From Candidatus Latescibacterota bacterium (GTDB taxonomy: Bacteria > Latescibacterota > UBA2968), in contig OZ241986.1 of assembly GCA_965204375.1 (NCBI GenBank), positions 3,840,001 to 3,904,000 of the forward strand: a stretch of DNA of 64,000 nt. The letters are read 5' to 3'. Within the stretch, counting starts at the first letter, position 1. Every line of letters begins with the position of its first letter. The notes beneath the pieces are model-generated. The model was not told the DNA's origin, did not search any database, and worked only from the letters and a program-made list of their open reading frames with translations. This document shows positions 6,264-64,000 of this stretch, piece after piece. Made by a program: the position numbers and the translations under genes.

Positions 6264-6276
6264 ACAGTGTTAGTCC

Positions 6277-8652
6277 TTATGCTGCGTGATAGAGCGCGTC
6301 GGTAAGTTCGCGGACAGCAGCGGCGTAACCCTCTCTGCCACCAAAGGCGCGAATGATCTCGGGTGCGGTACCGAGTCGCTTGATCGGATCAAGGGTGATA
6401 ATAGCGGGATTCTCCAAATCGGCGAAACCATCGTCCGAGTATTTGTCCAGAAGCGCATGAACGACCTTGCGGGCGAGTTCACCATATTTTGCAAAATAAT
6501 CGCGTTTCTTTACGTTGTCCGCGCGTTCTCTACGAGTCAGGGGTTTCTGGTCATAAGCAACATGACAGATTAAATCGAACGGATCGAAGCGCGGGCCTAC
6601 CACATCCCTCAGCGCATTAAAAATAACACCCTGTTTTTCCAACTCTTCGACAATCGCACGTTTCTTGTCGGCTCGCTTCCAGGAGTTCAGGAACGCATCG
6701 AGTGTGGCGTAGTTCTTTTGCACATTGCGGCGGGTATAGTCGCGCAAGTTCTCAGTGATAATTTTGCCGTCTTCACCCATGTATTGAACGCGCTCATTGA
6801 GAATGGTGACTCTGATACCATTGACTGTGACCTTCAGTGCCGGCCCGTAGTCTTCCGAGTCATCTTTGAAAAACGTATCTGCTGAGGAAAAAATAACTTC
6901 CTCACCCGTCAACTCATCAATCACAGGTTCTTCGTCCGTATCTTCCTCTACTCTGGAAATGTCTTCGTTTTGCAACGCCTCTTTGACGCGGACGGGATCA
7001 CCGTCAAACTCAGGATCGGCAAACAAAGCCGTTACATTGCGGAAATCCATGATCGTGAAGTAGTGCTTCCCAAAGTCCTCGTTGATGCGCGTACCGCGTC
7101 CAATAATCTGCTTGAACTCCGTCATCGAACCAATATTGGAATCCAGAACGATCAGTTTGCAAGTCTGTGCATCAATACCTGTGGTCATCAGCTTGGAAGT
7201 CGTAGCAATAACCGGGTATAGATCGTTGGGGTTAATAAACGCATCCAGGTGGCGTTTGCCCTCCTCATTATCTCCCGTAATCTGCATGATGTATCGGCTA
7301 TTTGAAGCCACAAGATCAGCATTGGCATTCACGAGTTCTCGCCGCATACCTTCGGCGTGTTCGATATCTACACAAAATACAATGGTCTTTGCATAGCGAT
7401 CGCTACCCTTGAGAAACTCGGTAATTTTTTCAGCCACCAGCTTTCTGCGATCCTCAACAATGATGTTTTTGTCGAAATCCTTCACATTGTAGATGCGATC
7501 CTCAACAAAATTCCCATCCTTATCTTTGAAGCCTTTAGGGGGACGCCACCCTTCGGCATCAATATCGAGCGTAACTTTGAGTACCTTATAAGGCGCGAGA
7601 AAACCGTCGTCAATACCCTGCCTGAGTGAGTAAGTGTAAATCGGATCGCCGAAGTATTCGGAACTCGATACCTCTGTGGTCTCTTTAGGCGTTGCCGTGA
7701 GGCCGATATGTGTTGCCCCGTTGAAATACTCGAGAATTTCACGCCACTTGCTGTCTTCGCGAGCACTGCCCCGGTGACACTCATCCACGACAACGAGATC
7801 AAAAAACCCGCGGCTAAATTGTTTATAGGCATCTTCGGATTTGCTGTCCGAAAGCCCCTGATAGAGCGCGAGGTAAATATTGTAGGCCGTATCGATATTC
7901 TTGTGTCTGACGACGGTCATCGCCTCCTTGAAGGGACGAAAATCGCCACGTACCGTTTGATCGATCAAAGCCGTGCGGTCAGCGAGCAACAAGACGCGCT
8001 TCTTGACACCGCTTTTCCAAAGGCGATAGATAATTTGGAACGCGGTATAAGTTTTCCCCGTGCCGGTAGCCATCACCAGAAGCACCCGCTTATCGCCTTG
8101 TGCGATTGCCTCAACAGTCCGGTTGATTGCTATTTGCTGATAATAGCGTGGAGAATGCCCGCTTCCATCCGTAAAATAATTTTGCGCGACAACGGGTTCA
8201 ATTTCCTCAGCGATGCCTCTATACGCTTTGTATTTGGCCCATAGAGTTTCGGGCGAAGGGAATGAATCGAGAGACAACTCAGATTCGAGATTGCCACTTG
8301 TCAGGGTTTTATCGTGAAAAACAAAACCATCGCCGTTGCTGCTAAACACAAAGGGAATGTCCAGAGTTGCAGCGTAGCCAAGTGCCTGCTGCATACCCGC
8401 GCCCACAGTGTGCTTGTTGTCCTTTGCCTCAATGACAGCGATGGGTATGTTCGGTTTGTAGTAGAGAATGTAATCGGCACGTTTCTTCTCACCCCGCGTA
8501 TGCAATTTACCCCGCACGTAAATCCGTCCATCCGTAAACGTGACCTCTTCCCGCACTTGTTCAAGGTCCCATCCAGCCCGATCTAAAGCCGGCGAGATGT
8601 ACTTCGTGCGGATGTCTTGTTCGGTGAGGGCTTTTTTGTTCATTGTTACCAT
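6277..8652 (-). CDS. hsdR: Type I restriction subunit R (EcoAI/EcoEI-like)
   Basis: ADYILY..IEAK nuclease motif, ATGTGKT, DECHRG, LTATP, QIIGRGTR and an EcoEI-R-like C-terminus. Confidence 0.95.
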   Translation of the reverse strand: MVTMNKKALTEQDIRTKYISPALDRAGWDLEQVREEVTFTDGRIYVRGKLHTRGEKKRADYILYYKPNIPIAVIEAKDNKHTVGAGMQQALGYAATLDIPFVFSSNGDGFVFHDKTLTSGNLESELSLDSFPSPETLWAKYKAYRGIAEEIEPVVAQNYFTDGSGHSPRYYQQIAINRTVEAIAQGDKRVLLVMATGTGKTYTAFQIIYRLWKSGVKKRVLLLADRTALIDQTVRGDFRPFKEAMTVVRHKNIDTAYNIYLALYQGLSDSKSEDAYKQFSRGFFDLVVVDECHRGSAREDSKWREILEYFNGATHIGLTATPKETTEVSSSEYFGDPIYTYSLRQGIDDGFLAPYKVLKVTLDIDAEGWRPPKGFKDKDGNFVEDRIYNVKDFDKNIIVEDRRKLVAEKITEFLKGSDRYAKTIVFCVDIEHAEGMRRELVNANADLVASNSRYIMQITGDNEEGKRHLDAFINPNDLYPVIATTSKLMTTGIDAQTCKLIVLDSNIGSMTEFKQIIGRGTRINEDFGKHYFTIMDFRNVTALFADPEFDGDPVRVKEALQNEDISRVEEDTDEEPVIDELTGEEVIFSSADTFFKDDSEDYGPALKVTVNGIRVTILNERVQYMGEDGKIITENLRDYTRRNVQKNYATLDAFLNSWKRADKKRAIVEELEKQGVIFNALRDVVGPRFDPFDLICHVAYDQKPLTRRERADNVKKRDYFAKYGELARKVVHALLDKYSDDGFADLENPAIITLDPIKRLGTAPEIIRAFGGREGYAAAVRELTDALYHAA

Positions 8653-8732
8653 CTCTTGTTTTCCACACTACCCACATCACCCCAATTGCGAATCTGACCA
8701 CCTTCCCATCCTGATTATACCGTCAAACCTCC

Positions 8733-8772
8733 ATCCTGTTCATCCTCCCATCCTGCCTATCCTGATCCAGAC
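8733..8772. repeat. ATCCTG-type REP-like repeat
   Basis: ATCCTGTTCATCCTCCCATCCTGCCTATCCTGATCCAGAC. Confidence 0.75.
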
Positions 8773-8790
8773 AGTTTCTTCCTCATCCCG

Positions 8791-10296
8791 TCATCTGAGA
8801 AGCATGAAGGTTGACAGAGGCAGGCTAACGATTCGGGGATCGTCAATTTCTTCGGCATTGTCCTGTGTGATCAGCAGGCCAAAAGCGGCATTGTTCACTG
8901 ATTTTTCCAGAAATGACCGAATGCCCAGCGTATCCCGTAAGGGATCTATCCTGCGTTGATATTTGATTTCTACCGGCACGCGTTGGGCACCGACGGTCAA
9001 AATGAAATCCACTTCACGGTCTATACCTCGTTCGGGAAAATGAGCGATGTCCAATCCGTGAATCGTCGAGGCAGTTGCGCCGAAAATACTCTCGGCGAGA
9101 TGCCCGGCTAATGGGGTGAGTTCGGGACGCTCTGATAGGGCTTCCGACGTCAATGGAATCTGCTCTTGAAGCCAACTGGCTCGCAATCCGTGATCAACCA
9201 GACAAAGTTTGGAACTCCCCCGCTTTCTTTTAAGACGTATTTCAAGCGGAGGAATCAATCGAAGAAGAAGTGTCTCGCCGAGAAATCTCAAATAGTGCGT
9301 CACGCGCTGACTGCCGATATTTGCGCCGAGCGACAGACGCGCCTCGTCCGCAAGCATTGAAACCGTCGGCGTCTGCCCAGCGTAGCGACAAGCCAGACGA
9401 AAAAGTTCTTCAAGCAGTTGAGGATCTCTCTTTCGACCGCGATCACCAACCCGAAGATCGTGTTGGATCACGCGCTGGATCACGGTTTCGTTCAACTGAT
9501 CTGCAAGCACTGCCCATTCGACATCCTTCTGTTTGTGGACGATGGGATAGCCGCCGCGCTCTGAAAAATGTCGAAACGCCTCATTCCGAAATCCCGTGTT
9601 ATCCTCACCATGAGCACGCAGTTCCCGCCAGAAATTCTTGTCAATCAGAAACCGCAGGCCGTTGTCCTGCAGGAATGGCTCCGGTGCTTCCAACTCGCGC
9701 AACGCACCGATTTCGGTAAGCGAAAGCACCCCCGCCTCAATAGTGTTAATGCGTCCTGCCAGACTATCCCGGCCTCTTTCAATCCTCAGTGCAGAACTTC
9801 CAGTAACGACAACTTTTACCGAAGCATGATCTACGAGAAACTTGAGTTGTGCATGCCAGCCATCCAGATTTTGAATCTCGTCAAAAAAGAGATATGCCTT
9901 CTGCCCATCTCGCGCTAACGCATTGAAACGCGCCCCTGTTATCTTTCGTTCAAACCAGCGGGAAATGGTGAGAATCGGATCCTCTATCCTTTGCAACGAT
10001 GCCAATTCCTCAAACTGCACGCGAAGGATGCTTGTGGGAGGCACGCCTTCGTCGAGCAAATCCGCAATAATTTGAAACTGTGCCGTCGTCTTTCCTACCT
10101 GGCGCGGGCCTCGCACCACGATAATCGGAGCTATCTCTGCATCCAGACGACGACGTATCTGCGCGACCAGATGGCGGCGCGTCCGCGGTTGTGGCGGCAT
10201 GAGATCGCCCTCCCACCACGGGTTCAGATCACGCAAGTCAGCGACCAATTGTGGCGGGAGCCAGCTATCGGCAAAAAGCGAATCCTGACTGCTCAT
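8791..10296 (-). CDS. AAA_14 ATPase with DUF4143/PD-(D/E)XK C-terminus
   Basis: GPRQVGKTT, FFDEIQ, TGSS and EVDFIL...PVEIKY. ATG at 10296 with a GGAGAGAGG RBS. Confidence 0.85.
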   Translation of the reverse strand: MSSQDSLFADSWLPPQLVADLRDLNPWWEGDLMPPQPRTRRHLVAQIRRRLDAEIAPIIVVRGPRQVGKTTAQFQIIADLLDEGVPPTSILRVQFEELASLQRIEDPILTISRWFERKITGARFNALARDGQKAYLFFDEIQNLDGWHAQLKFLVDHASVKVVVTGSSALRIERGRDSLAGRINTIEAGVLSLTEIGALRELEAPEPFLQDNGLRFLIDKNFWRELRAHGEDNTGFRNEAFRHFSERGGYPIVHKQKDVEWAVLADQLNETVIQRVIQHDLRVGDRGRKRDPQLLEELFRLACRYAGQTPTVSMLADEARLSLGANIGSQRVTHYLRFLGETLLLRLIPPLEIRLKRKRGSSKLCLVDHGLRASWLQEQIPLTSEALSERPELTPLAGHLAESIFGATASTIHGLDIAHFPERGIDREVDFILTVGAQRVPVEIKYQRRIDPLRDTLGIRSFLEKSVNNAAFGLLITQDNAEEIDDPRIVSLPLSTFMLLR

Positions 10297-10403
10297 GATC
10301 AATCCTCTCTCCAAAATCTTGCATTTCGACAACGCGAAACTTCGGTTAGCTCCACACCTCGATAATATACTGCAGTACACATCGCTTACCAACCCTCCCC
10401 CTT

Positions 10404-10520
10404 GTCTGAATCAGGATTTACAGGATTTTAGGATAAGCAGGATACCCCTTACCACATCCCACCAAACCTGCCAAACCCTCATCCTGTCCATCCTCCCATC
10501 CTGCCTATCCTGATCCAAAG
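10404..10520. repeat. Inverted pair of ATCCTG-type repeats (potential long hairpin)
   Basis: 10404-10443 (GTCTGAATCAGGAT...CAGGAT) is an inverted relative of 10481-10520 (ATCCTGTCCATCC...ATCCTGATCCAAAG). Confidence 0.75.
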
Positions 10521-11836
10521 TGCCTCCCCTCCTTCGCTGCTTGCCATTGGTCTTCTGTATCAATCTCGGCGCCGGGATCGCCCTGTTGTTTCATCCAGCA
10601 ATCGAGCGCGGCAGACAGGCGTTTCTTCGCCTCTGCGTGTGCGGGATCATCGGCCAGATTATTCAACTCGCAGGGATCCTCATCCATCCGATACAACTGC
10701 TCGGGCGGGCGGCGCATGTACCGATCCACCAAAAACCGCGTATGCTCATTAAACGTCGTATCAAAAACCCACGTCGGCCAGTACTGGTGCCATCGAAACT
10801 GCCCCATCAGATGCTTCTCAATATAGATCGCCTCGGGCGTCAGATTGCGAATATAGTGATACGTACCATCCGTCACCGCGCGGATCGGATAGGGTGGCCC
10901 CTCGGGAATATTATTATGCATAAAATACGCGAACGCCCGATGATCCTCTGCCTCCCCCAAAAGCACAGACATAAAACTCGCCCCATCAAAATCAATCGCA
11001 TCGGAATCACCGCCCGCAGCCTCAATCAGCGTAGGCATAACATCCTCATACTGAATAACCGCATCGGTATATCCCGGCTTCACCACGCCGGGCCAGCGCA
11101 CGACAAAACCCGTATGAACACCCGTATTCCAATTCGTCCACTTGCACCCGGGAAACTGCGACCCCTGCTCAGACGTAAAAATCACCAGCGTATTATCCGC
11201 CTGCCCGGTCTCATCCAGCACCGCCAGAATCTCACCCACCTCCTGATCCAGCACCTCGATCTCCGCCAGGTATTTGGCATAATCACTCCGCGTCTCCTCC
11301 GTATCCGCCAGATACGGAGGCAACTTCAACGCATCCAGATCAAAATGCTCGGGATTGCCCAGCGTCCACGGCGCGTGCGGCTCAAAAAGCCCGGCCACAA
11401 GACAAAAAGGCGCATCCCGATCTTGCGCCACAAACGCGCGAATACCCTCAACGCCAAACTCGGGATCGGGATGTGTGCATCCCCCCTCAATACCCGGCAC
11501 ATACTCAAAAGGAAAACTCTTATTGGGACCCACATGCTTCTTGCCACACAGCCCCACGCGATACCCCAGATCCCCCAGAAAATGCGGAAGACTCCTCGTC
11601 CCTGGACGCGCAGCAGAATGATTCCAGCACGACCCATTGCGCGCCGGGTACAATCCCGTATAAAGCGCCGTACGGCACGGATTGCACATCGCCATAGGCA
11701 AATACGCCCGATTAAAAACCAGACCATCTCGTGCCAACCCGTCAATATTCGGCGTCTGCACATTCTGCCCACCGTACAGCGACAAATCGAGATACGTCGC
11801 ATCATCTGCAATCATAATCAAAATATTCGGTTCCAT
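10505..11836 (-). CDS. Sulfatase (N-sulfoglucosamine sulfohydrolase-like)
   Basis: PNILIMIADD, CNPCRTALYTG (CxPxR) and GKKHVG. Confidence 0.9.
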   Translation of the reverse strand: MEPNILIMIADDATYLDLSLYGGQNVQTPNIDGLARDGLVFNRAYLPMAMCNPCRTALYTGLYPARNGSCWNHSAARPGTRSLPHFLGDLGYRVGLCGKKHVGPNKSFPFEYVPGIEGGCTHPDPEFGVEGIRAFVAQDRDAPFCLVAGLFEPHAPWTLGNPEHFDLDALKLPPYLADTEETRSDYAKYLAEIEVLDQEVGEILAVLDETGQADNTLVIFTSEQGSQFPGCKWTNWNTGVHTGFVVRWPGVVKPGYTDAVIQYEDVMPTLIEAAGGDSDAIDFDGASFMSVLLGEAEDHRAFAYFMHNNIPEGPPYPIRAVTDGTYHYIRNLTPEAIYIEKHLMGQFRWHQYWPTWVFDTTFNEHTRFLVDRYMRRPPEQLYRMDEDPCELNNLADDPAHAEAKKRLSAALDCWMKQQGDPGAEIDTEDQWQAAKEGRHFGSG

Positions 11837-22824: not shown

Positions 22825-23753
22825 GAAGCTGTTTTAAAATTATGAAAAAAGAAAAAAAGCGTTGAAAAAGCGTATTCATCTGTCCAAATTCAGGTTGTGC
22901 ATATCACCCTGAAACGAAAGGACATGCGATGAATACGCACCGGCAATATCCGACAAATGTCACCGAAGCGCAATGGCAACTGCTCATCCCACTTCTGCCC
23001 AAGCGCAAATGGCGAAAAGGCAGCCGTGGCCGTCCTCCTGTCAATTTGAGAGAAGTGTTTGATGGCATCCTGTATCTGACGAAGACCGGCTGCCAATGGC
23101 GCATGCTGCCTCATACCTTTGGCTGTTGGCAAACCGTGTATGGCTATTTCAACAACTGGCGCGAACAAGGCGTCTTTGAGCGTGTGCAACAGGCCCTCAC
23201 ACGAAAAGAGAGAAAACGGCAAGGACGTAAAGCTACCGCCTCAGCAGGCTGCATTGACAGTCAAAGTGTCAAGAGTGCAACACAAGGAGAATCAAAAGGT
23301 TACGATGCTGGCAAAAAGGTCAATGGACGCAAACGCCACCTGCTTGTCGATACCCTCGGCCTGGTGATCAACGCCTTTGTCTCGCCTGCCAATCTCCAAG
23401 ATCGTGACGGCCTCAAGCATCTGCTGAATCAGTATTTTGAGCAAGGAACAACACGCTTACGCAAGCTGTGGGTTGATGGCGGCTATCGCGGCGATGACCT
23501 CAAGGAATGGGTCGCTGATAGGAAGCGCACGTATAAAATTGATCTTGAGGTTGTTAAGCCTAATGGCGAGGGCTTCCAAGTCGCCAAGCGCCGTTGGGTC
23601 GTTGAGCGCACCTTTGCTTGGTTATACAATTTTCGCCGTCTGTCAAAGGATTATGAAGACTTGACGGATAACAGTGAAGCCTTTATTCACATTGTTATGA
23701 TTTACCTCTTACTCAACAGACTCGATTAAACGCAGCATTTTTAAAACAGCTTC
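22825..23753 (+). mobile_element. IS5-family (IS1031-like) insertion sequence (929 bp)
   Basis: Perfect 15-bp IRs GAAGCTGTTTTAAAA (22825-22839 / 23739-23753), flanked by a TAA duplication. Confidence 0.92.
22929..23729 (+). CDS. IS5-family transposase
   Basis: YPTNVTEAQW, TGCQWRMLP, IDSQSVK, GYDAGKKVNGRKRH and RWVVERTFAWL. Confidence 0.95.
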   Translation: MNTHRQYPTNVTEAQWQLLIPLLPKRKWRKGSRGRPPVNLREVFDGILYLTKTGCQWRMLPHTFGCWQTVYGYFNNWREQGVFERVQQALTRKERKRQGRKATASAGCIDSQSVKSATQGESKGYDAGKKVNGRKRHLLVDTLGLVINAFVSPANLQDRDGLKHLLNQYFEQGTTRLRKLWVDGGYRGDDLKEWVADRKRTYKIDLEVVKPNGEGFQVAKRRWVVERTFAWLYNFRRLSKDYEDLTDNSEAFIHIVMIYLLLNRLD

Positions 23754-23806
23754 TAAGGACCACATTAATCAAAATTTTTAGCAACAGCCATGAATTTGAT
23801 CGAGAT

Positions 23807-25126
23807 CTATTTATCTTCTGACTGCCCACGCCACCTAAATGCTCTTCTGAATCCCAGAGATTCTGCTTCAGCCACCGTTTCTACATAGCATTCATTTTTT
23901 TCTTTTTCAATAATAGTTTTATCATATTGCTGGTCGAAAGGTAAGTGATATATCTTCTCACCAGATTTTCGGGAAATATTGCACTTGACTAATGGATACT
24001 TTGATAATGAGATACCTTCTTTTACCTTGACACCAAGGATCTCAGCAAATTGCCCTGCAGTGTCAGATAATTGTGTTGACGTAATGAAAGTTGGGACAAT
24101 TCCCTGAGAACGAAGTAGCTCTGGAAATAACTCAATTTGATCGGCCTGGCGATCACAATTATTGACCAGAAACATCACCGTCGTGCCAAAAAGTTGGTTT
24201 ATATGTTTTTCACGGATAATTTTGTTTTTTGACCAACACTTACATTGCACTATTTCAACTATTCCATCTTTTTTGCAAATTAGATCACGTCCGAGATCCT
24301 CAAAGCCTTTTACAATACCTTGATATTCAACTTGGTATCCTTCCTTCTCATACAGGTAACCAATATATCGTTCGTAATCTCTTCCTACTTCCCAATTTGA
24401 TTTTTTCTTTTCCCAATACCGATCCAGCGCAAGTTGATTCTTTTCTATTGTTGAGAGCATTTCATATTCTGCATCTGTAAGCCACTTACGAACAGGATCG
24501 AATTGTACATCATCTATTGCACTCTCCTGTCCGTCAATATGTTGTCTCACAATTTCATCCAAATCATCACCAATAAAGTCAATTAGCCAAGGAAATAGTT
24601 TTTCGTAGTAATCCACAAAATACTTCGCCATCCTCCATCGCTTCTCCAATTCTCTCTTTTCGGCTTTTATCTTTCGGACTACATCGGCAGCTTTTGGAGC
24701 AGGAGGTTTTTTATTTTCTAAAAAATCAGCTATCTGTTCATCCCGCAAAGAGATATAATCCCCAAATGCTGTGGCGAGCCAAGGAAATCCTAGGGTTTTT
24801 TCATTTGCTATTCTCTCAAGAGCTTGCCTGTCTCTCTCCTTCTGTGCTTTCAAAAACTCTTTTGCTTGGTATATCTTTGTTCTTTCTTCCAACAACTGTT
24901 TTTCGGCTTCCGCTTGTCTCTGCGCAAATCCTTCTGCCAAATTAGCAATTTCGGTCTTTTTGATCCGCAAGAACTCATTGATGATATTCTTAGTATTGAT
25001 TTCATTTCTATAAATTAGTCCCTTAAATGACCTCTTAAACTCATCCAAGTCATTACTAATCTTCTGAAGTTTGGAGACTTTGTTTCTTAATTTGAGAAGT
25101 TTATTTTTAAAAAGTTCAGGTGTCAT
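23807..25126 (-). CDS. Coiled-coil plus Mrr-like (PD-QxK) restriction endonuclease domain protein
   Basis: GRDYERYIGYLYE..GY.V...G...DLGRDLI...IVQCK.W, with a long helical N-terminus. AT-rich DNA. Confidence 0.75.
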   Translation of the reverse strand: MTPELFKNKLLKLRNKVSKLQKISNDLDEFKRSFKGLIYRNEINTKNIINEFLRIKKTEIANLAEGFAQRQAEAEKQLLEERTKIYQAKEFLKAQKERDRQALERIANEKTLGFPWLATAFGDYISLRDEQIADFLENKKPPAPKAADVVRKIKAEKRELEKRWRMAKYFVDYYEKLFPWLIDFIGDDLDEIVRQHIDGQESAIDDVQFDPVRKWLTDAEYEMLSTIEKNQLALDRYWEKKKSNWEVGRDYERYIGYLYEKEGYQVEYQGIVKGFEDLGRDLICKKDGIVEIVQCKCWSKNKIIREKHINQLFGTTVMFLVNNCDRQADQIELFPELLRSQGIVPTFITSTQLSDTAGQFAEILGVKVKEGISLSKYPLVKCNISRKSGEKIYHLPFDQQYDKTIIEKEKNECYVETVAEAESLGFRRAFRWRGQSEDK

Positions 25127-37347: not shown

Positions 37348-37896
37348 TCACACTTCGTCGCGCTCGTCCAAAAAATCCATAATTGCCGGTGTGGCGACCT
37401 CAATAAAACGCCTGAGCGTATCCGCCAGAGCGTTGGCGAACTCATCGTTCAGTGTATTACTACCAAAATTAACCGCGACTCGTCCCCATCTATTACGCTG
37501 TCTTAGTCTTTGGTCTTCGTGGATATCCAGATTATTCACAAAACTTTTCAATGACTTGCTTTTACCATCAGAAAGACCGCCGATTTGCCCGTATTTGTTC
37601 TCGCCATATCTGATTGCAACGAGTGCATTGCTACAGGATGCCGTCTTAGATGGATCGTCGAATGTCATTTCGATTTCATAGCACAGGGCCCGCCAGTTTT
37701 CCCATGGCCGCTCTGAATACCATAAGTGATAGCAGAGGGGTTTTTTGCCCTCTTCCTCTATGCCAAAGGGAGCCATGCCATTATTACCTTTGCTATTCTT
37801 ATCTGGTCGTTTGATTTCGTCAGGCAAACCATCTTTTGCCAGATCGCTAACTTCTTCGAAAAAGCATAGAACGTTCTTGCGTAACCTCTCATTCAT
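37348..37896 (-). CDS. Hypothetical protein
   Basis: 182-aa co-oriented ORF with no recognised family. Confidence 0.55.
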   Translation of the reverse strand: MNERLRKNVLCFFEEVSDLAKDGLPDEIKRPDKNSKGNNGMAPFGIEEEGKKPLCYHLWYSERPWENWRALCYEIEMTFDDPSKTASCSNALVAIRYGENKYGQIGGLSDGKSKSLKSFVNNLDIHEDQRLRQRNRWGRVAVNFGSNTLNDEFANALADTLRRFIEVATPAIMDFLDERDEV

Positions 37897-37980: not shown

Positions 37981-38370
37981 TCAATTTCGCTCACAAATAT
38001 GCTCTCTCAACCATTCGACAAGTTGCTCGCGGGAAACTTTTCCTGATGCGAGGCCCAAAATGATTTGTTCTTGAATATCTACGGTAGCATCAATTCTATA
38101 TCCATTAGAACGCAAGAATACTGCCATTGCAGCATGCCCCACCCGTTTATTTCCATCCACAAAGGGGTGATTCCCAATCAAAGAAAAACACAAGGCTGCC
38201 GCCTTTTCTATAACGGTAGGATAGAGATCCTGTCCCCCAAACGTCATAAGGGGTTGTGCGATAGCCGATTCCAGTCCACCAGGATCGCGTATCCCCGCAG
38301 ATCCGCCACTTGTTTGAATAATATGATTGTGAAGTGCTAATATTTGATCTAAATTGATATGATTCATCAA
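37981..38370 (-). CDS. Fic/Doc death-on-curing family toxin
   Basis: G.RD.G.LESA.A.P, KAAAL..SLI.NHPFVDGNKR. Confidence 0.9.
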   Translation of the reverse strand: MMNHINLDQILALHNHIIQTSGGSAGIRDPGGLESAIAQPLMTFGGQDLYPTVIEKAAALCFSLIGNHPFVDGNKRVGHAAMAVFLRSNGYRIDATVDIQEQIILGLASGKVSREQLVEWLREHICERN

Positions 38371-39494
38371 CTTAGCCTTTTGTATAGTTCGCTATTTTCC
38401 TTGAGTACCTGTTCACAGATATCCTTAAATCTCTGTTTCTCAAAAAATTTAACAGGATCATCAAAACTCTGTCCTCGAAATACACCGTTTTTAAAAAAAT
38501 TAATGGTATCATCTTTTATCTGACAATACGATCCAAGACCACCTGCCCTGAAACCCAAATGATGACCAATGACAATGCGTATGATCTCGGGGACTACGGC
38601 AGCAACTATGTTAAAGGTATATCTTTTGGACTGCTCATTATCAAGTCCTTTTAGCTCTGGTATCCGACCAGTGTGCGTCAGGACATTACGCACCCGATCA
38701 ACATATCGAACCCGGGTCTCTTGTTCAGGTACTGGCGACGAATCTATAATCTCAAGTGATTGCAGGAGCGAAAATAATTTATCTAATAAAGATGGGCCAC
38801 GATCAATCTGACCACTTAGCAAATTTTTATACCGTTCCACTTGGTCTGGTTGAAGTCCTTTTGTTTTTGTAAGGACATCGCTTATCTCATTTTTAAGTTT
38901 CTTACGGATAGGCTTGCTGACCTTTTCATAGGCCATCTCATGCTGGTCGAGAACAATGTTGAGTGCCGTGCAGTAAGAAGCCGCGCGTAATTGCAGGATA
39001 TTGGTGTTCATTGCCTGATTGTATAACAGCAAAGCAAAATGCAAATTTTTCGATACTAAGGATTCCCTATTTTGCCAGGCAAGTGCTGCTGCACGCAAGG
39101 TCTCAATTTGAGCCACAGCATAATCACCATATCCATCTGGGCGAACCCTCTCACGGTATTCTTCTGTTGCTACGTTTCTACCCGTCAAAAAAGTGAGCAA
39201 ATTGCATAAATCCCACAGTCCTCCATCGTCGGCTACCCTGTCGAGAAGAATACTCTTTTCTCCAGCCCCTTCCCAAGACACAGTTGCCGTGGCATGCCAG
39301 GTACCTGTTTTTGCCGACGAGCGTTGTAGTCCTGTTTCATCGAGAGTCAACATTGGAGGTTGAGGCAGTTGAGAAACCTTATCATTGTAATCATCTGTGA
39401 GACGCACCTTAAGACAGCCGATACTGCTCTCTGACCATGGGGGGCCGGGACGTGAATCGCCCATATAGAGATTGAAGAGGTCAATTGTTTTCAT
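38367..39494 (-). CDS. ApeA-like/HEPN-motif protein with a Doc-antitoxin-like C-terminal tail
   Basis: LL.FLTG and RNVLTH (Rx4H, 38690-38673). Ends FKDICEQVLKENSELYKRLS. ATGA overlap with doc. Confidence 0.6.
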   Translation of the reverse strand: MKTIDLFNLYMGDSRPGPPWSESSIGCLKVRLTDDYNDKVSQLPQPPMLTLDETGLQRSSAKTGTWHATATVSWEGAGEKSILLDRVADDGGLWDLCNLLTFLTGRNVATEEYRERVRPDGYGDYAVAQIETLRAAALAWQNRESLVSKNLHFALLLYNQAMNTNILQLRAASYCTALNIVLDQHEMAYEKVSKPIRKKLKNEISDVLTKTKGLQPDQVERYKNLLSGQIDRGPSLLDKLFSLLQSLEIIDSSPVPEQETRVRYVDRVRNVLTHTGRIPELKGLDNEQSKRYTFNIVAAVVPEIIRIVIGHHLGFRAGGLGSYCQIKDDTINFFKNGVFRGQSFDDPVKFFEKQRFKDICEQVLKENSELYKRLS

Positions 39495-39559
39495 ATTTAT
39501 TCCCTCTGGATTACTGGCGTCATGCTGGCGCGTGGCGGCTTACACCCTGCCGCAATGAC

Positions 39560-51972: not shown

Positions 51973-52002
51973 TCATCAGTAATGGGCAATGAGGAGATTA
52001 CT

Positions 52003-55000
52003 ATGAAGCACTGGTGGATGCGCCGACTACAACTCGGCCTTTTGGGGATTGCGATAATTTTAATAGCTATGTGGGGATGCGGACGCGAGCGCGTAAATCC
52101 GGTTGACTCACAATTTGAAGGAACCACGACGACTTTGAATCCGCCGGGCAATATTCGCGCCCAGGGCGGTATTGGACGGATCACTTTGAACTGGAATCCC
52201 GTGAACAGCACCAACCTTGCGGGATACGGAATATGGCGGTCAACATCGGCTACGGCCGACTTTGTGCTATTGCGCGGCGAATCATCCGTTCCCGACGTGA
52301 CGACAGCACGCACGACTTATGTGGATTCGACAATAGATGCCAATGTATCGAAAATATACTTTTATAAACTCAGCACCGTAGATGTAGAAGGACAAGCAAG
52401 CGAATTATCTACATTTGTAAGTGCAGAAGTCCTCGATGACACGCGGGCACCGGCTATGCCGACAAATTTCGTCGCCATCACCGATGCCGATGGCAAACAG
52501 GTGACACTGGGCTGGTCAGCGCCAGAAATGGATGTGGGCAATCAGGAATTGACCGGCTTGTCCGGGTACAGGGTTTTCAGAATCAAAGATTCGCAGGGCA
52601 AACTCCAGATACAGGGTTCGCAGGCAGCTCTGGTCCAACTCGCCACAGAACTGGGCATTGACCTCGATAATCTGGGAGAAATATCCGACGATTTGAAGGA
52701 TATTTTTGTTGAACTTGGAACCGTGCCAGCCGGCCAAACTTATTTTCTCGATACCGATGGACTCGAAGCTGGCGTACTTCACGTTTATGTGGTCATCGCC
52801 GTTGATCCAGAAGGCAACATCGGGCCTCCAGCACTTGCTTTAGTGACTATAAACGCACCGGGCGCGAACGTACCAGTGCCTGCTAACTTGCGCGCGACAA
52901 AAAATGAACAGGCGCGTATTGTCATATCCTGGAATCCCGTAAACGATCCCAACTTGCTGGGCTATCTGGTCTCGCGGTCACAATCGACACAAGGTCCCTT
53001 CACACCCGTAACAAGCGATACGCTCTTTACCACGGGACAGACGACCTATGTCGATTCGCTTGTCGCGACCGATCAAGTGTACTACTACAAAGTTCAAACC
53101 GTTGTACAAGACCCCAATCTCGGGCTATTGCGCAGTGATACTTCCACTTTTATCGACGGACAGGCACTTGCCGACCAGAGTGCTCCTGGCGCGCCCTCAG
53201 ATCTCATCGTCAGCCTGGACGATGATAATTTCCAGCGGGTGATGCTGAACTGGACTGCACCTGTAACAGACAGAAATGGCAATGAACTGACTGGATTGGC
53301 CTCTTTTGAAATCTACCGGTCACGCGATAACAATACATCCTTCGCGCTCATCGCCACAGTATCGAGCGATCAGGTGAGTTTTGTAGATACTTCTGTCGAA
53401 TTACTCACGACGTATTTCTATGCCGTCAGAGCATTGGATCAGGCCGGCAATGCCGGACCCCGGTCTCAGCCGATATCTGTGACCACCAGGGGATTTGCCA
53501 TCCCGCGCAACGTGCGGGCAACTTCTGGTGTGCAGAAAATCACCTTGACCTGGACGGCAAACACCGAGCCTGAATTGACCGGATATGAAATATTGCGCTT
53601 TACAGATCCCACGCATGAAACACCTGACAAAACCTTCTCTTCTGTGTTGACGACCTATGTGGATACCCCCGTCACAGCAGATCAACCCTTTGTCTATCGG
53701 GTGCGTGCGGTTGGCACCGCCAATGTGAAGAGCGAATTGTCTCCCCCCGTCTCTGCCCAGGCCACGGAAGCTGCTCCAGTTCTGGCAGCACCGCGCAATG
53801 TGCAGGCAAGGGGTGGGATTGGTCACATTACCATCACCTGGGCGGCAAACACCGAGCCTGAACTGACCGGGTATCGCGTCATGCGCTATACAGACCCGGC
53901 ACAGACAGTGGCCGAAGCGACCTTCGCGACAGTGCAGACGACTTATGTCGATTCTCCGCTGGTATCGGGACAGACCTATGTCTATCGCGTACAGGCGGTT
54001 GGTACCAATAACGAAAAAAGCGAACAATCGCTCTATGCCTCCGCAACCGTCTCAGCCGATCAGAGCCCTCCCGGCGCGCCCTCGGATCTCATCGCCAGCC
54101 TGGACGATGATAATTTCCAGCGCGTGCTCATCAGCTGGACGGCTCCCACAAGAGACAGCAATGGCAATGAACTGACCGGATTGACCTCCTTTGAAATCTA
54201 CCGGTCGCGCGAGAACAATACATCCTTTGCGCTGATCGCCGCAGTATCGAGCAATCAAATGAGTTATGAGGACACATCTGTCGAGTTATTGACGCGATAC
54301 TTTTATGCAGTCAGAGCATTGGATCAGGCCGGCAATGCCGGACCCCGGTCTCAGCCAGTATCTGTGACCACCAAAGGATTTGCCATCCCGCGCAACGTGC
54401 AGGCGACTGGTGGTGAGCTGAAAATTACCTTGACCTGGGCGGCAAACACCGAGCCGGAATTGACTGGATATGAGATCTTGCGCTTTACAGATCCCACAGA
54501 TGAAACACCTGACAGGATCTTCTCTTCTGTGTTGACGACCTATGTGGACACCCCTGTCACAGCCGGACAGACCTTTGTGTATCGGGTGAGGGCAGTTGGT
54601 CCCTCAAATTTGAAGAGCGATCTATCTGCCTTTGTCTCTGCGCAGGCCATTGAGCCGCCTCCGGTTCTGGCAGCACCGCGCAATGTGCGAGCCATTGGTG
54701 GTGAGTTGAAAATCACCTTGACCTGGACGGCAAACACCGAGCCGGAATTGACTGGATATGAGATCTTGCGCTTTATAGATCCCACAGATGAAACACCTGA
54801 CAGGATCTTCTCTTCTGTGTTGACGACCTATGTGGACACCCCTGTCACAGCCGGACAGCCTTTTGTCTATCGGGTGCGGGCAGTTGGTGCCGCCAATGAG
54901 AAGAGCGAACTATCGGTCTTTGTCTCTGCACAGGCCACCGAGCCGCCTCCGGTTCTGGCAGCACCGCGCAATGTACGCGCGACTGCTGGAATTGAGTATA

Positions 55001-55872
55001 TCGCCATCACCTGGGCGGCAAACACCGAGCCGGAACTGATTGGGTATCGCGTCATGCGCTATACAGACCCGGCACAGACAGTGGCCGAAGCGACCTTTAT
55101 GACCGTGCATACGACTTATGTCGATTCGCCGCTGGTAGCGGATCAGACCTATATATATCGCGTGCAAGCGGTTGGTGTAAATAACACAGAAAGCGAATCA
55201 TCGCTATTTGCCTCTGCAGAGGTACTGCCTGATAATAGCCCACCTGCTACCCCCGACAACTTTATCGCTGCTTTGGAAAGTAGTGGCGCAGCGATTGAAT
55301 TGAGTTGGGACGCCCCCATGAGGGATGCAGATGGCGGCGACCTGACTGGACTTGCCAGCTTTGTGATCTATCGCACGGACCCATTGAGTAATAATGTGCT
55401 AACCGTGCTAACAATCGTAGATGCGTCACATCGCGAATATCGCGATATAGACCTGCTCAATCGCACGACTTACAGGTATCAGATCTCTGCCATTGACCAC
55501 CAGGGCAATGAGAGTGAGCGTTCGCCCATCAGGACAGCGACCACAACTGATATAGTCCCCGTGCCTCCAACGGACCTGGTGGCTAATTACAATCCCGTTG
55601 TTCCCGAAATTAATCTGACCTGGACACCCCCTGATAAGTATGACCATTTCATCGTTCAACGGGCAGCAATCGCCGGCGCTGCTTCCGGTGCTGCTATTCG
55701 AAATTTAACAGACGGAGATTATACGACTTTGGAAACCGAGGATCCGATCACAACCACTTCTTATAGCGATAGAGATATTAAAAGTGGTTTCACCTATGTT
55801 TACCGGATCCGCACATCTCTTTCTGGACGGATCAGCGCTCCTTCAGAAACTGATTTTGATTTTTCCCCATAA
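52003..55872 (+). CDS. Large fibronectin type III repeat lipoprotein
   Basis: GAGGAG RBS, lipobox MWGC and about a dozen P.N..A...I.LTW...L.GY...Y.D...Y.YRV.AV units. Confidence 0.88.
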   Translation: MKHWWMRRLQLGLLGIAIILIAMWGCGRERVNPVDSQFEGTTTTLNPPGNIRAQGGIGRITLNWNPVNSTNLAGYGIWRSTSATADFVLLRGESSVPDVTTARTTYVDSTIDANVSKIYFYKLSTVDVEGQASELSTFVSAEVLDDTRAPAMPTNFVAITDADGKQVTLGWSAPEMDVGNQELTGLSGYRVFRIKDSQGKLQIQGSQAALVQLATELGIDLDNLGEISDDLKDIFVELGTVPAGQTYFLDTDGLEAGVLHVYVVIAVDPEGNIGPPALALVTINAPGANVPVPANLRATKNEQARIVISWNPVNDPNLLGYLVSRSQSTQGPFTPVTSDTLFTTGQTTYVDSLVATDQVYYYKVQTVVQDPNLGLLRSDTSTFIDGQALADQSAPGAPSDLIVSLDDDNFQRVMLNWTAPVTDRNGNELTGLASFEIYRSRDNNTSFALIATVSSDQVSFVDTSVELLTTYFYAVRALDQAGNAGPRSQPISVTTRGFAIPRNVRATSGVQKITLTWTANTEPELTGYEILRFTDPTHETPDKTFSSVLTTYVDTPVTADQPFVYRVRAVGTANVKSELSPPVSAQATEAAPVLAAPRNVQARGGIGHITITWAANTEPELTGYRVMRYTDPAQTVAEATFATVQTTYVDSPLVSGQTYVYRVQAVGTNNEKSEQSLYASATVSADQSPPGAPSDLIASLDDDNFQRVLISWTAPTRDSNGNELTGLTSFEIYRSRENNTSFALIAAVSSNQMSYEDTSVELLTRYFYAVRALDQAGNAGPRSQPVSVTTKGFAIPRNVQATGGELKITLTWAANTEPELTGYEILRFTDPTDETPDRIFSSVLTTYVDTPVTAGQTFVYRVRAVGPSNLKSDLSAFVSAQAIEPPPVLAAPRNVRAIGGELKITLTWTANTEPELTGYEILRFIDPTDETPDRIFSSVLTTYVDTPVTAGQPFVYRVRAVGAANEKSELSVFVSAQATEPPPVLAAPRNVRATAGIEYIAITWAANTEPELIGYRVMRYTDPAQTVAEATFMTVHTTYVDSPLVADQTYIYRVQAVGVNNTESESSLFASAEVLPDNSPPATPDNFIAALESSGAAIELSWDAPMRDADGGDLTGLASFVIYRTDPLSNNVLTVLTIVDASHREYRDIDLLNRTTYRYQISAIDHQGNESERSPIRTATTTDIVPVPPTDLVANYNPVVPEINLTWTPPDKYDHFIVQRAAIAGAASGAAIRNLTDGDYTTLETEDPITTTSYSDRDIKSGFTYVYRIRTSLSGRISAPSETDFDFSP
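53173..55230 (+). repeat. Near-identical intragenic DNA repeats, order A-B-C-A-B-B-C
   Basis: A at 53173/54058 (885-bp offset), B at 53503/54388/54676, C at 53791/54964 (288-bp unit spacing). Confidence 0.85.
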
Positions 55873-62078: not shown

Positions 62079-62561
62079 CTACGCTGGCACGTCCAGATTG
62101 GTGTTCCCACCAAGCTCCAGTTCTTTCAGGTTTTTCAGTTGTCTCAACGATGAAGGGATCGAACCCGATAACTGGTTATTCCCAAGCTGTAGTCTTTCCA
62201 GATTTGTCATCTTGCTTAACTCGACTGGAATCGGTCCCGATAGTTCGTTGTCGGAAAGCTCCAGATGTTCCAAGTTTGTCAGTTGTCCTAACTCAACAGG
62301 AATCTGCCCCGATAAATCGTTGTAGGAAAGCCATAGTTTTTTCAGGTTCGTCAGTTGTCCTAATTCTGAAGGTAGCGAGCCCGATAACCGATTCCTATGA
62401 AGCCTCAGCCCGGTCACTCGTCCGGTATCATTGGTCTCTACACCATACCACTCGCTGAGAGGTTTGTCGGTCTTCCAGTTCGTATTGTTGCGCCAATTCG
62501 CCCCATCGGTCGCATCATACAGTGCGATCAGTATCGCCCGTTCATCCTTTTCAATGCGCAT
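62079..62561 (-). CDS. Leucine-rich repeat protein (plant-RLK-like 24-aa LRRs with N-cap)
   Basis: AL.ALYDATDG.NW....NW.....L..WYGV, then about 4 LSG.IP.ELGQLTNL..L.L..N units. AGGAGG RBS. Confidence 0.88.
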   Translation of the reverse strand: MRIEKDERAILIALYDATDGANWRNNTNWKTDKPLSEWYGVETNDTGRVTGLRLHRNRLSGSLPSELGQLTNLKKLWLSYNDLSGQIPVELGQLTNLEHLELSDNELSGPIPVELSKMTNLERLQLGNNQLSGSIPSSLRQLKNLKELELGGNTNLDVPA

Positions 62562-62764
62562 CAATACATATCCTCCTTTTACTTCACTCACCTTACGAAA
62601 GCAATCACAAATAACCACCGCACAGACCAGAGCACTATAGTGAAGTAATTCAGTGCTACGCTTGTGCGGTGGTTGCTTTTGGTGAACATTCATCCAAATG
62701 ACTGCGTTGTGCTGCGATGCACTACTTATCACAATGATCCGTCGTATGGACTACATTCCCGACC

Positions 62765-63901
62765 TCACATAGCCCCATTAGCTATGAGAAATTGCATTAC
62801 TTCTGTGTCGCCTCTTCTCATAGCCCATTGAAGTGGTGTATCGCCTCCAATATCTCTCGCATTGACATTTGCGCCATTGGCGGTTAGAAATTCGACCGCT
62901 TTCAGGCGGCCTTTGCTTACAGCCTCGTGTAGCGGCGTGCTGACCTCCTTTGCATTGACATCTGCGCCGTTGGCAAGCAATATCTGCAAAGCCCTTGTAT
63001 AGCCCAAATAAGCAGCCCTGTGAAGTGGGGTTTCTCCGTCCGCATCTGTTGCATTGACATCTGCGCCATTCGCAAGCAGAAATCTGACCACTTCTATGTG
63101 GTCCCAATATATCGCTTTGTGCAGCGGGGTTTCCCCGTCTGCATCTGCTGCATTGACATCTGCCCCTTTGGCAAATAACATTTTGACAACTTTACCTTTG
63201 CCCCAATAGGCAGCCCTGTGAAGCGGCGTATTGCCTTTATTATCCTTCGCATTCACATCCGCGCCATTGGCAAGCAACACCTTGAAGACTTCCGGATTGC
63301 CCCAATAGGCTGCTCCGTGCAGCGGTGTATTGCCTTCATTATCCCGCGCATTCACATCCGCTTTTTTCACAAGCAAAAACGTGATCGTTTCCGGATTGCC
63401 CCAATAGGCAGCCTCGTGCAGCGGTGTATTGCCGACATAATTTTTTCCATTGACACCTGCGCCATTATCAAACAAAAACTTGACTGTTTGCATATCTCCT
63501 TTTTTTGCAGCGATGTGCAACGGCGTGTTGCCAACAGAATTTCTCCCATTGACATCTGCCCCATGCACAAGCAAAATCCCGGCCGTTTCTGTATCTCCTT
63601 TCCCGACAGCCTCGTGCAGTGGCGTATCGCCTTTATCATCCCGTGCATGAATATACGCCTTCGCGGCAAGCAGACACCCAACCGTTTCCAAATCGCGTCT
63701 ATCAACAGCCTCGTGCAGTGGCGTTCTGTCGAACTTATCCTTCGTATTGACCTCCTCGCCATTTGCAAGCAACTCCTTGAACCTTTTTGTATCTCCTTTC
63801 CTGACAGCCTCGTGCAGTGGCGTTCTGCCGAATTTATCTGTGTTGTAGCGTTTGTTTCTTCGCGTTGGTACAAAATTAGAAAGCGTCTTCTTCATAGACA
63901 T
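62765..63901 (-). CDS. Ankyrin repeat protein (11 repeats)
   Basis: 11 G.TPLH.A...G....V..LL..GA.VNA units. AAGGAG RBS before the ATG at 63901. Confidence 0.92.
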   Translation of the reverse strand: MSMKKTLSNFVPTRRNKRYNTDKFGRTPLHEAVRKGDTKRFKELLANGEEVNTKDKFDRTPLHEAVDRRDLETVGCLLAAKAYIHARDDKGDTPLHEAVGKGDTETAGILLVHGADVNGRNSVGNTPLHIAAKKGDMQTVKFLFDNGAGVNGKNYVGNTPLHEAAYWGNPETITFLLVKKADVNARDNEGNTPLHGAAYWGNPEVFKVLLANGADVNAKDNKGNTPLHRAAYWGKGKVVKMLFAKGADVNAADADGETPLHKAIYWDHIEVVRFLLANGADVNATDADGETPLHRAAYLGYTRALQILLANGADVNAKEVSTPLHEAVSKGRLKAVEFLTANGANVNARDIGGDTPLQWAMRRGDTEVMQFLIANGAM

Positions 63902-64000
63902 TTGCTCCTTTGATACAATTTGATCGTGCAGGCACACCACAACGCAATCATTCAGTGAATCGTTCTGGACAAACCCCTGCATATTCAATTGTCAAAGAAC

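Follow-up and report, generated by a model that had tools for sequence, protein, structure and literature searches.

Layout of the locus

The window, by which we mean the whole 64-kb stretch of DNA that was analysed, carries on its minus strand a gene for a 375-aa protein that overlaps, at its 3' end, a gene for a Doc toxin. Both reading frames are found where the initial annotation, made from the letters alone, had put them, namely, a 375-aa frame at 38367-39494 and, downstream of it, doc at 37981-38370. From the N- to the C-terminus, the 375-aa protein consists of a beta-rich domain, an Apea-type HEPN domain, a linker and a Doc-antitoxin helix, and we refer to it below as the fusion and to its last helix as the tail. 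The features, each with the evidence for it, are as follows.

38367-39494, minus strand: gene of the 375-aa fusion (open reading frame; 91 relatives; predicted model; dN/dS of about 0.3)
39502-39506, minus strand: Shine-Dalgarno-like GAGGG ahead of the fusion start (sequence)
39111-39494, minus strand: beta-rich N-terminal domain, residues 1 to about 128 (predicted model)
38547-39071, minus strand: HEPN domain, approximately residues 142-316, with a helical insertion (VIA-align; relatives above the HEPN_Apea cut-off)
38673-38690, minus strand: R-x4-H motif with R269, N270 and H274 (conservation; profile alignment to Ec2ApeA)
38430-38474, minus strand: linker, residues 341-355 (low pLDDT; variable length)
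38370-38429, minus strand: Doc-antitoxin helix, residues 356-375 (homology to RHH antitoxins; complex model; invariant residues)
38365-38370, minus strand: TTGATG stop/start overlap (window and all ten tailed loci)
37981-38367, minus strand: doc toxin gene, 128 aa from the ATG (TIGR01550, Pfam Fic, P1 Doc)
38143-38169, minus strand: Doc catalytic loop H67-P-F-V-D-G-N-K-R75 (conservation)
37348-37896, minus strand: 182-aa open reading frame after doc (open reading frame)

The product of the downstream gene scores 64.6 bits against TIGR01550 (cut-off 38.65) and 79 bits against Pfam Fic (cut-off 24), and aligns with P1 Doc with an E-value of 8e-11. The loop of Doc proteins follows the consensus HxFx(D/E)(A/G)NKR, its lysine marking the kinase-type Doc, and the loop residues H, P, F, D, G, N, K and R are invariant in all ten Doc proteins compared. 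The protein also matches the PADLOC model PDC-M59B, to which we could trace no paper. As to the junction, the "ATGA overlap" of the initial annotation has to be replaced by TTGATG, in which the stop codon TGA (38369-38367) shares one base with the ATG (38367-38365); an alternative TTG start of doc at 38370 would make a 4-base TTGA overlap. The further claim that the two genes are translationally coupled holds as far as the stop/start junction goes, since this is present in the window and in all ten tailed loci described below, whereas the coupling itself is what such a junction would be expected to bring about. A purine-rich run precedes the same ATG of the fusion gene in these ten loci.

A close protein search with the 375-aa protein retrieved 91 relatives at 40-90% identity, and the query and these matches together are the 92 proteins referred to below. 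The query itself yields nothing significant in Pfam, PADLOC or NCBIfam, so that its identity is taken from its relatives; a phmmer search against the PDB likewise gave nothing significant, and collections of plasmids and phages contain no relatives at E <=0.1. The predicted structure of the whole protein has a mean pLDDT of 87.9, and the model of residues 1-145 reaches 95. For the N-terminal domain, the best structural match found by VIA-align (Z 3.5) is uninformative, which is no proof of a new fold, and Foldseek at E <=0.001 finds nothing in the PDB for either the whole model or this domain and nothing in BFVD for the whole model. The N-terminal domain may be regarded as a candidate sensor.

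The HEPN body

The initial annotation recognised a HEPN protein by the motif RNVLTH, and this identification is borne out both by the motif, which occupies residues 269-274, and by the HEPN fold of the predicted model. R269 is conserved in 68 of 69 aligned tailed proteins, N270 and H274 in all 69, and in an alignment that adds distant relatives 47 of the 48 sequences keep both the arginine and the histidine; R269 and H274 are as invariant as the structural core. When the model was compared with known structures by VIA-align, HEPN proteins, matched over residues 142-316, filled most of the top 13 rows (Z 5.8-7.6, each middling when taken alone; HEPN in five of the titles), the top HEPN rows aligning over 102-129 residues with a Z of 6-7.6 and an rmsd of 3.7-7.0. 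In particular, Csm6 was matched with Z 7.6 and the HepT structure 7ae2 with Z 7.0 (rmsd 4.0, 111 residues aligned), and 8xdj and 5yep were likewise among the top rows; Csm6, AbiA and YutE, which also appear there, we take to be HEPN proteins. The structures 5yep and 1jog have been called HEPN (bioRxiv 2026.01.26.701840, PMC2701414).

At the level of sequence profiles, HEPN_Apea is matched at E <=0.1 by 23 of 42 aligned relatives (best 2.9e-6) and MauJ by eight, and the 24.4-bit cut-off of HEPN_Apea (PF18739) is passed by 3 of 24 chosen relatives, the query having no match. PADLOC gives weak ApeA-type matches in 3 of 48 relatives and none for the query, and the family profile, run against the sequences of the PDB, finds as its best match Ec2ApeA, weakly (E 0.057) but at the catalytic R-N-x3-H motif. 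The earlier label "ApeA-like" can be retained for the HEPN domain and has to be dropped for the protein as a whole: at 375 aa, it lacks the ApeA architecture, in which a helical N-terminal domain, a Mid domain and a HEPN domain add up to some 600 aa. Apea-type HEPN proteins of 350-390 aa form a family with 138 representatives, to which PADLOC models fit poorly.

Origin of the tail

The canonical antitoxin of Phd/RHH-Doc pairs is a protein of some 60-80 aa with an N-terminal DNA-binding domain. The two best plasmid matches of the Doc protein are found on plasmid epsilon of Nostoc PCC 7120 (62%) and in Gemmatirosa (51%); in both, doc is preceded by a gene for a protein of 64-65 aa with a weak ribbon-helix-helix (RHH) match, the last helix of which closely resembles the tail of the fusion. 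A profile was made from the last 24 residues of ten small proteins, with no HEPN sequence included; two of the ten are verified to lie upstream of doc, one (L021) is followed by no annotated doc, and seven are without context. With this profile, 76 of the 92 proteins reach at least 10 bits, in every case at their C-terminal end, and of 133 further relatives, a control set that includes fragments, not one does so or even exceeds 2.2 bits. The tail in the window, with 10.2 bits, is among the weakest matches (the best has 43.5), and none of 2000 shuffles of it exceeds 4.8 bits, so that the likeness of the last 20 residues to the C-terminal helix of small Doc-linked antitoxins, noticed in the initial annotation, is upheld. 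The same helix ends 77 of the 92 proteins; the other 15 comprise five distant relatives, eight apparently truncated proteins, P0045 with a shortened tail and P0079 with none. Among 69 tailed proteins, no variation is seen at N367, E369, L370, Y371, R373 and L374. Taken by itself, the tail has no match in Pfam, and as a query against shorter proteins it retrieved three candidates, all of them fragments of the fusion's own family. Conversely, three small antitoxins searched against longer proteins gave seven matches among 8000 scored, the known HEPN fusions not being recovered.

Judged from these similarities, the tail is homologous to the C-terminal helix of the RHH antitoxins that precede doc. 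The RHH DNA-binding part of the donor antitoxin is absent from the fusion, in which no Pfam domain of the Phd, RHH or AbrB kind is matched at E <=1, whereas the small antitoxins do match RHH. The point of grafting can be located because the distant tail-less relatives align with the fusion only up to about residue 345-352, and most of them, behind the FFxxGxxR block that they share with it, finish with another helix, which is acidic. Together with the tree described below, the comparison strongly supports a history in which an Apea-type HEPN gene would have shed the acidic helix at its end and acquired about 20 codons of an RHH-type antitoxin along with a coupled doc.

Conservation, phylogeny and selection

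Genomes were scanned with one peptide pattern, by which some members may be overlooked; of the 29 stretches that it matched, 14 were confirmed as loci, ten of them tailed (L007-L016) and four tail-less (L017-L020). All ten tailed loci come from Latescibacterota and have TTGATG at the end of the HEPN gene with the start of doc, and nine of them have an intact doc. Among the tail-less loci (32-35% identity; L017 and L018 are nearly identical), none of the four has a doc at E <=1e-4 in flanks of 2-8 kb; the search began from the HEPN protein, and a doc surviving without the fusion lies outside its reach. The tail-less genes adjoin Mrr, MmeI-like methylase or GIY-YIG genes, and the tail-less HEPN proteins of 350-390 aa are a candidate single-gene defence family.

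The initial annotation had named a one-off deletion junction or a misassembly as what would undo the fusion, and the related genomes are in fact metagenome-assembled. However, all ten genomes, each of species level, have the same junction, which is found at two chromosomal sites and over dS values of up to about 0.95, and 77 of the 92 proteins are tailed, so that we consider the chance of a misassembly or a recent deletion junction to be negligible. The two other grounds for refutation named there, a body without the HEPN fold and a tail that does not neutralise Doc, found no support either, the latter as judged by the complex model described below. In a tree of 60 proteins (38 of the 77 tailed ones and 22 others) built by a quick search and with the tail columns left out, the tailed proteins form one clade with an SH-aLRT support of 99, in which P0045 and P0079 are also placed, their branches being longer. 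This topology suggests that the tail was gained once and may have been lost twice within the clade. Three groups are well supported in the tree of the HEPN gene, and the same three recur in that of doc. Thus, the fusion is a real, conserved chimera of single origin.

Within the fusion, pooled dN/dS comes to 0.32 in the N-terminal domain, 0.30 in the HEPN core and 0.28 in the tail, and that of Doc to 0.26, as obtained from 55 and 45 pairs that are not independent of each other; the fusion gene and doc are both under purifying selection. One locus, L011, shows what is retained when doc is lost: only the first four codons of doc remain there, a short repeat element having taken the place of the rest (9068-9410), and the HEPN gene with its tail is intact, apart from a 10-residue deletion of the kind indicating that in-frame indels are tolerated. 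The repeat element recurs at least twice in L013 at 85-88% identity. The replaced stretch was also considered as a decayed doc, at which a MAFFT alignment hinted; this was rejected, given that its local score of 35 is below the best of 500 shuffles (41) and that the stretch matches the repeat elsewhere in L013.

These observations bear on the view that the HEPN protein is only a carrier, that is, a stable scaffold for the helix that is kept because Doc makes it indispensable, whatever RNase role it had being minor, unrelated or gone. An inert carrier indeed suffices experimentally (PMC10440598); moreover, dN/dS of the module, and of the fusion in every pair compared, exceeds that of the neighbouring GT2, PhyH, CimA and LeuB genes, and indels such as the deletion in L011 are accommodated. 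Yet an inert scaffold would hardly keep R269 and H274 as invariant as its structural core, an N-terminal domain as constrained as the tail, and an intact HEPN gene in L011 where no doc follows, and we regard the carrier view as unlikely. Since the catalytic residues are invariant and the protein persists without doc, the HEPN body is probably an RNase, conditionally active and with a role of its own.

The linker and the predicted complex with Doc

Between the HEPN body and the tail, the linker has a pLDDT of 50-63 in blocks of ten residues, and the length of the C-terminal segment ranges from 52 to 72 residues across the 77 tailed proteins. A tandem duplication of about 17 codons lies directly before the tail in the window (38430-38510) and at the end of the HEPN gene in L009, where the duplicated 51-nt units are identical in 38 of 51 bases; P0033 and P0034 show similar duplications, and the linker was thus lengthened by tandem duplication in the window's lineage. 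Because the linker varies in length by repeated duplication and models poorly, it would appear that a loose tether joins the HEPN body and the tail.

The predicted model of the full-length fusion with Doc scores 0.77, as compared to 0.00 for the best of three controls. The pass mark of this procedure is reached by 116 of 157 solved pairs and by 2 of 215 mismatched ones and is roughly valid with the alignments used here; at least 68% of the contacts are common to the runs, with a partner pLDDT of at least 84. Confident contacts with Doc involve only residues 355-375 of the fusion, led by the invariant L370, Y371 and L374, and the modelled tail touches residues 71-72 and 74-75 of Doc, at the end of the catalytic loop. 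Given that Phd-Doc complexes have already been solved, the pass may reflect likeness to these structures and is to be read as likeness, not binding.

The fusion could, in principle, be a guard or sensor switch, in which a phage signal bound by the N-terminal or the HEPN domain, or a phage-borne inhibitor of the RNase, would alter the shape or the oligomeric state of the fusion and so eject or activate Doc without any degradation, a single trigger thereby firing two toxins of translation. Such a switch would be in keeping with the loss of the autoregulating DNA-binding domain from the fusion, with the reported activation of ApeA by a ligand in a pocket between its N-terminal and HEPN parts (bioRxiv 2026.01.26.701840) and with the sensory role proposed for the Panacea carriers of Phd-C (PMC10440598), the latter two as far as the relevant sections of these sources go. 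It is quite unlikely, in our estimate, in view of a linker that varies by up to 20 residues and was duplicated more than once, and of a model with no confident Doc contact beyond the tail (the residues other than those named being uncertain), both of which are unsuited to tight allostery.

The same model argues against control in the opposite direction or in both, where Doc would restrain the RNase sterically or by phosphorylation, as in MNT-HepT, the tail being its docking site. HEPN toxins are often silenced by an adjacent modifying enzyme, as the part of the literature bearing on HEPN-MNT has it (PMC13000451), and Doc would be kept at the HEPN dimer by the tail. However, intact HEPN genes occur with no doc nearby in all four tail-less loci and in L011, the modelled tail sits against the catalytic loop of Doc in the manner of an inhibitor, and the antitoxin gene comes first and doc second; Doc as a regulator of the RNase therefore strikes us as highly unlikely.

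Genomic setting and neighbouring cargo

The module occupies fixed chromosomal sites among housekeeping genes, with no obvious mobile island. The first of two sites, between an ExeA-like ATPase gene and phytanoyl-CoA-dioxygenase-like genes, is shared by the window, L007-L011 and L013, and the proteins flanking the module in the window are 82-98% identical to those of L007-L009, which makes it most likely that the window belongs to the same group of bacteria. The second site follows a LeuA/CimA-type gene (L012, L014-L016) and, in L014 and L015, precedes argJ. In the latter two loci, at about 5200-10800, the module has genes of leucine/isoleucine biosynthesis on one side and argJ on the other, and in L015 the stop of doc overlaps the start of argJ. 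The dS of the module is similar to that of its neighbours, which points to mostly vertical inheritance. The gap to the upstream gene is as short as 11-13 bases (L013, L011), and scans for promoters (6 found vs 5.9 expected by chance) and terminators (2 vs 3.6) are at chance level; with such short gaps and no promoter above chance, the pair is probably read from host transcripts.

The slot after doc holds changing cargo, namely, a methylase-HNH gene in L011 and L013, an AAA ATPase gene in L012 and the following gene in L008.

L008 9782-10831, plus strand: 349-aa Swt1-HEPN protein (relative of the window's 182-aa open reading frame)

The 182-aa open reading frame of the window corresponds to the C-terminal half of this 349-aa protein standing alone (76% over 177 aa); it matches no Pfam, PADLOC or NCBIfam family, and its Atlas neighbours are unnamed. 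With a relative in only one of the ten tailed loci, it is better described as variable cargo than as the third component of the system suggested in the initial annotation. In L016 (9478-10541), doc is followed by two overlapping reading frames of 194 and 160 aa with no Pfam match, the shorter of which is presumably a classic HEPN protein, and then by a transposase-like frame. Upstream of the full HEPN gene in L008 lies a 66-base piece (7232-7297) that is 80% like the middle of the HEPN gene, and beside it an inserted 182-aa reading frame (7319-7867) unrelated to the one of equal length in the window.

Elsewhere in the window, a type I restriction specificity-domain reading frame lies beside a transposase (217-2659), and an Mrr-domain protein beside an IS4/5 transposase (22929-25126). 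Between about 10000 and 23000, there is a strong strand skew, the GC skew reaching -0.36 and the AT skew +0.30, where a series of genes of about 430-500 aa lies on the minus strand. The stretches 51982-55872, 62079-62732 and 62765-63988 encode proteins with fibronectin-III domains, leucine-rich repeats and ankyrin repeats, a set that is typical of sponge symbionts.

A proposed mechanism

We propose that the two genes form a toxin-antitoxin module of type II in which the antitoxin would be a HEPN RNase. Both proteins would be made from one message, by translational coupling across the overlapping stop and start codons. The tail, by its homology to antitoxin helices and by the modelled complex, would fold into the groove of Doc beside the catalytic loop and keep the toxin inactive, like the C-terminal helix of Phd. 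The HEPN domain would dimerise into an active site, as the motif and the fold suggest, and would act, as its family does, as a conditionally active RNase, most likely in defence against phage or other mobile DNA. This RNase would be the only local antitoxin of Doc, loosely tethered to its neutralising helix, so that loss or silencing of the gene, proteolysis, or a halt of resupply in a translation shut-off would free Doc to phosphorylate EF-Tu and stop translation. Doc would thereby lock in and back up the RNase, and the two active sites need not communicate.

Such an arrangement amounts to a fail-safe or addiction device in which losing the RNase protein frees Doc, so that giving up the enzyme would probably set a second toxin free in the cell. 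The loose tether and an RNase with a role of its own lead us to prefer it over a mere carrier, a sensor switch or a reverse control, and we put its chances at about even. In favour of the RNase-antitoxin module we count the start of doc in all ten tailed loci and the absence of doc from all four tail-less ones, the Mrr, MmeI-like and GIY-YIG neighbours of the tail-less relatives, the variable linker, which fits a loose tether, and the retention in L011 of the RNase without doc, a loss that toxin-antitoxin pairs tolerate. Against it we count the place of the window's tail among the weakest matches to the antitoxin profile, the lack of a PADLOC match for the query, with weak ApeA-type ones in 3 of 48 relatives, the fixed sites among housekeeping genes away from any obvious mobile island, a defence role drawn from the family and from the neighbours of distant relatives, and, again in L011, a tail that has stayed perfect although the locus lacks doc. 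There, the tail may be structural as well, or the loss of doc may be recent, or another Doc may be served in trans.

A more far-reaching version, which we offer tentatively and would sooner doubt than accept, is a two-layer abortive infection, where a phage would be sensed by the RNase or would attack it, and the ensuing activation, inhibition or degradation of the RNase would release Doc. If so, a phage that disarms the RNase would trigger a kinase of EF-Tu, and one translation toxin would be the antitoxin of another.

Relation to known systems

With the Phd-Doc and RHH-Doc pairs (P1; Nostoc WP_010994175/WP_010994176), the module of the window shares an intact Doc loop, an overlapping upstream antitoxin gene and a helix of the same family; unlike the Nostoc pair, its antitoxin has 375 aa with a HEPN domain, as compared to a 65-aa RHH repressor, and, the repressor being replaced by the HEPN domain, there is no evident self-repression of the operon. 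The C-terminal peptide of Phd is by itself enough to neutralise Doc, according to the part of the source concerned with it (PMC9207808), and so is Phd-C placed on SUMO or on Panacea, an exchangeable element whose action was described, in the corresponding part of that report, as "linear neutralisation" (PMC10440598). The fusion resembles both the PanA(Phd-C)-Doc pair of Corynebacterium doosanense and the engineered SUMO-Phd-C in that the helix sits on an unrelated globular domain; it differs from Panacea, for which the sections of the same paper at hand describe no toxic activity, in that a probable RNase, the active site of which is conserved, serves as the carrier.

From ApeA, which the available part of the report depicts as an anti-phage RNase with a ligand pocket and a ring-shaped oligomer that cleaves tRNA or phage RNA on infection (bioRxiv 2026.01.26.701840), the HEPN domain is familiar, being of the split HEPN_Apea type with a helical insertion and the R-N-x3-H motif. 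ApeA, as outlined there and in a further report covered to a similar extent (bioRxiv 2026.03.20.713152), consists of one gene, the product of which has some 600 aa with a Mid domain and a helical N-terminal domain, whereas in the fusion, of 375 aa, the N-terminal domain is small and beta-rich, and the tail and a coupled partner gene are present in addition. The neighbourhoods of RloC/PrrC-like ABC-HEPN proteins likewise bring a HEPN RNase and Doc together in one defence locus, and layered defence has been proposed for them; in the portion of that survey relevant here, the genes are merely neighbours in restriction-modification loci, with no fused antitoxin helix described (PMC3710099). In HEPN-MNT (HepT/MntA), a protein of HEPN fold likewise has a modifying enzyme as its partner, the HEPN protein acting as the toxin and its partner as the antitoxin, so that the polarity is apparently reversed in the fusion and Doc. 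A full-text search, covering largely papers outside subscription journals, returned no title or start of an abstract on a HEPN protein with a Doc-antitoxin tail, and among the texts covered Phd-C is mentioned along with Doc only in the two versions of the NetFlax paper. Panacea is a precedent for placing a Doc-neutralising helix on an unrelated carrier; the search returned none in which the carrier is a probable nuclease effector.

The locus accordingly presents a natural graft of a neutralising helix onto a probable defence nuclease, in which the donor family, the junction, the origin and the losses are all visible. It would extend linear neutralisation from DNA-binding or inert carriers to an effector, and it offers a two-gene test case for the idea that defence genes are shielded by addiction modules, be it against their loss or against the counter-defence of phages.
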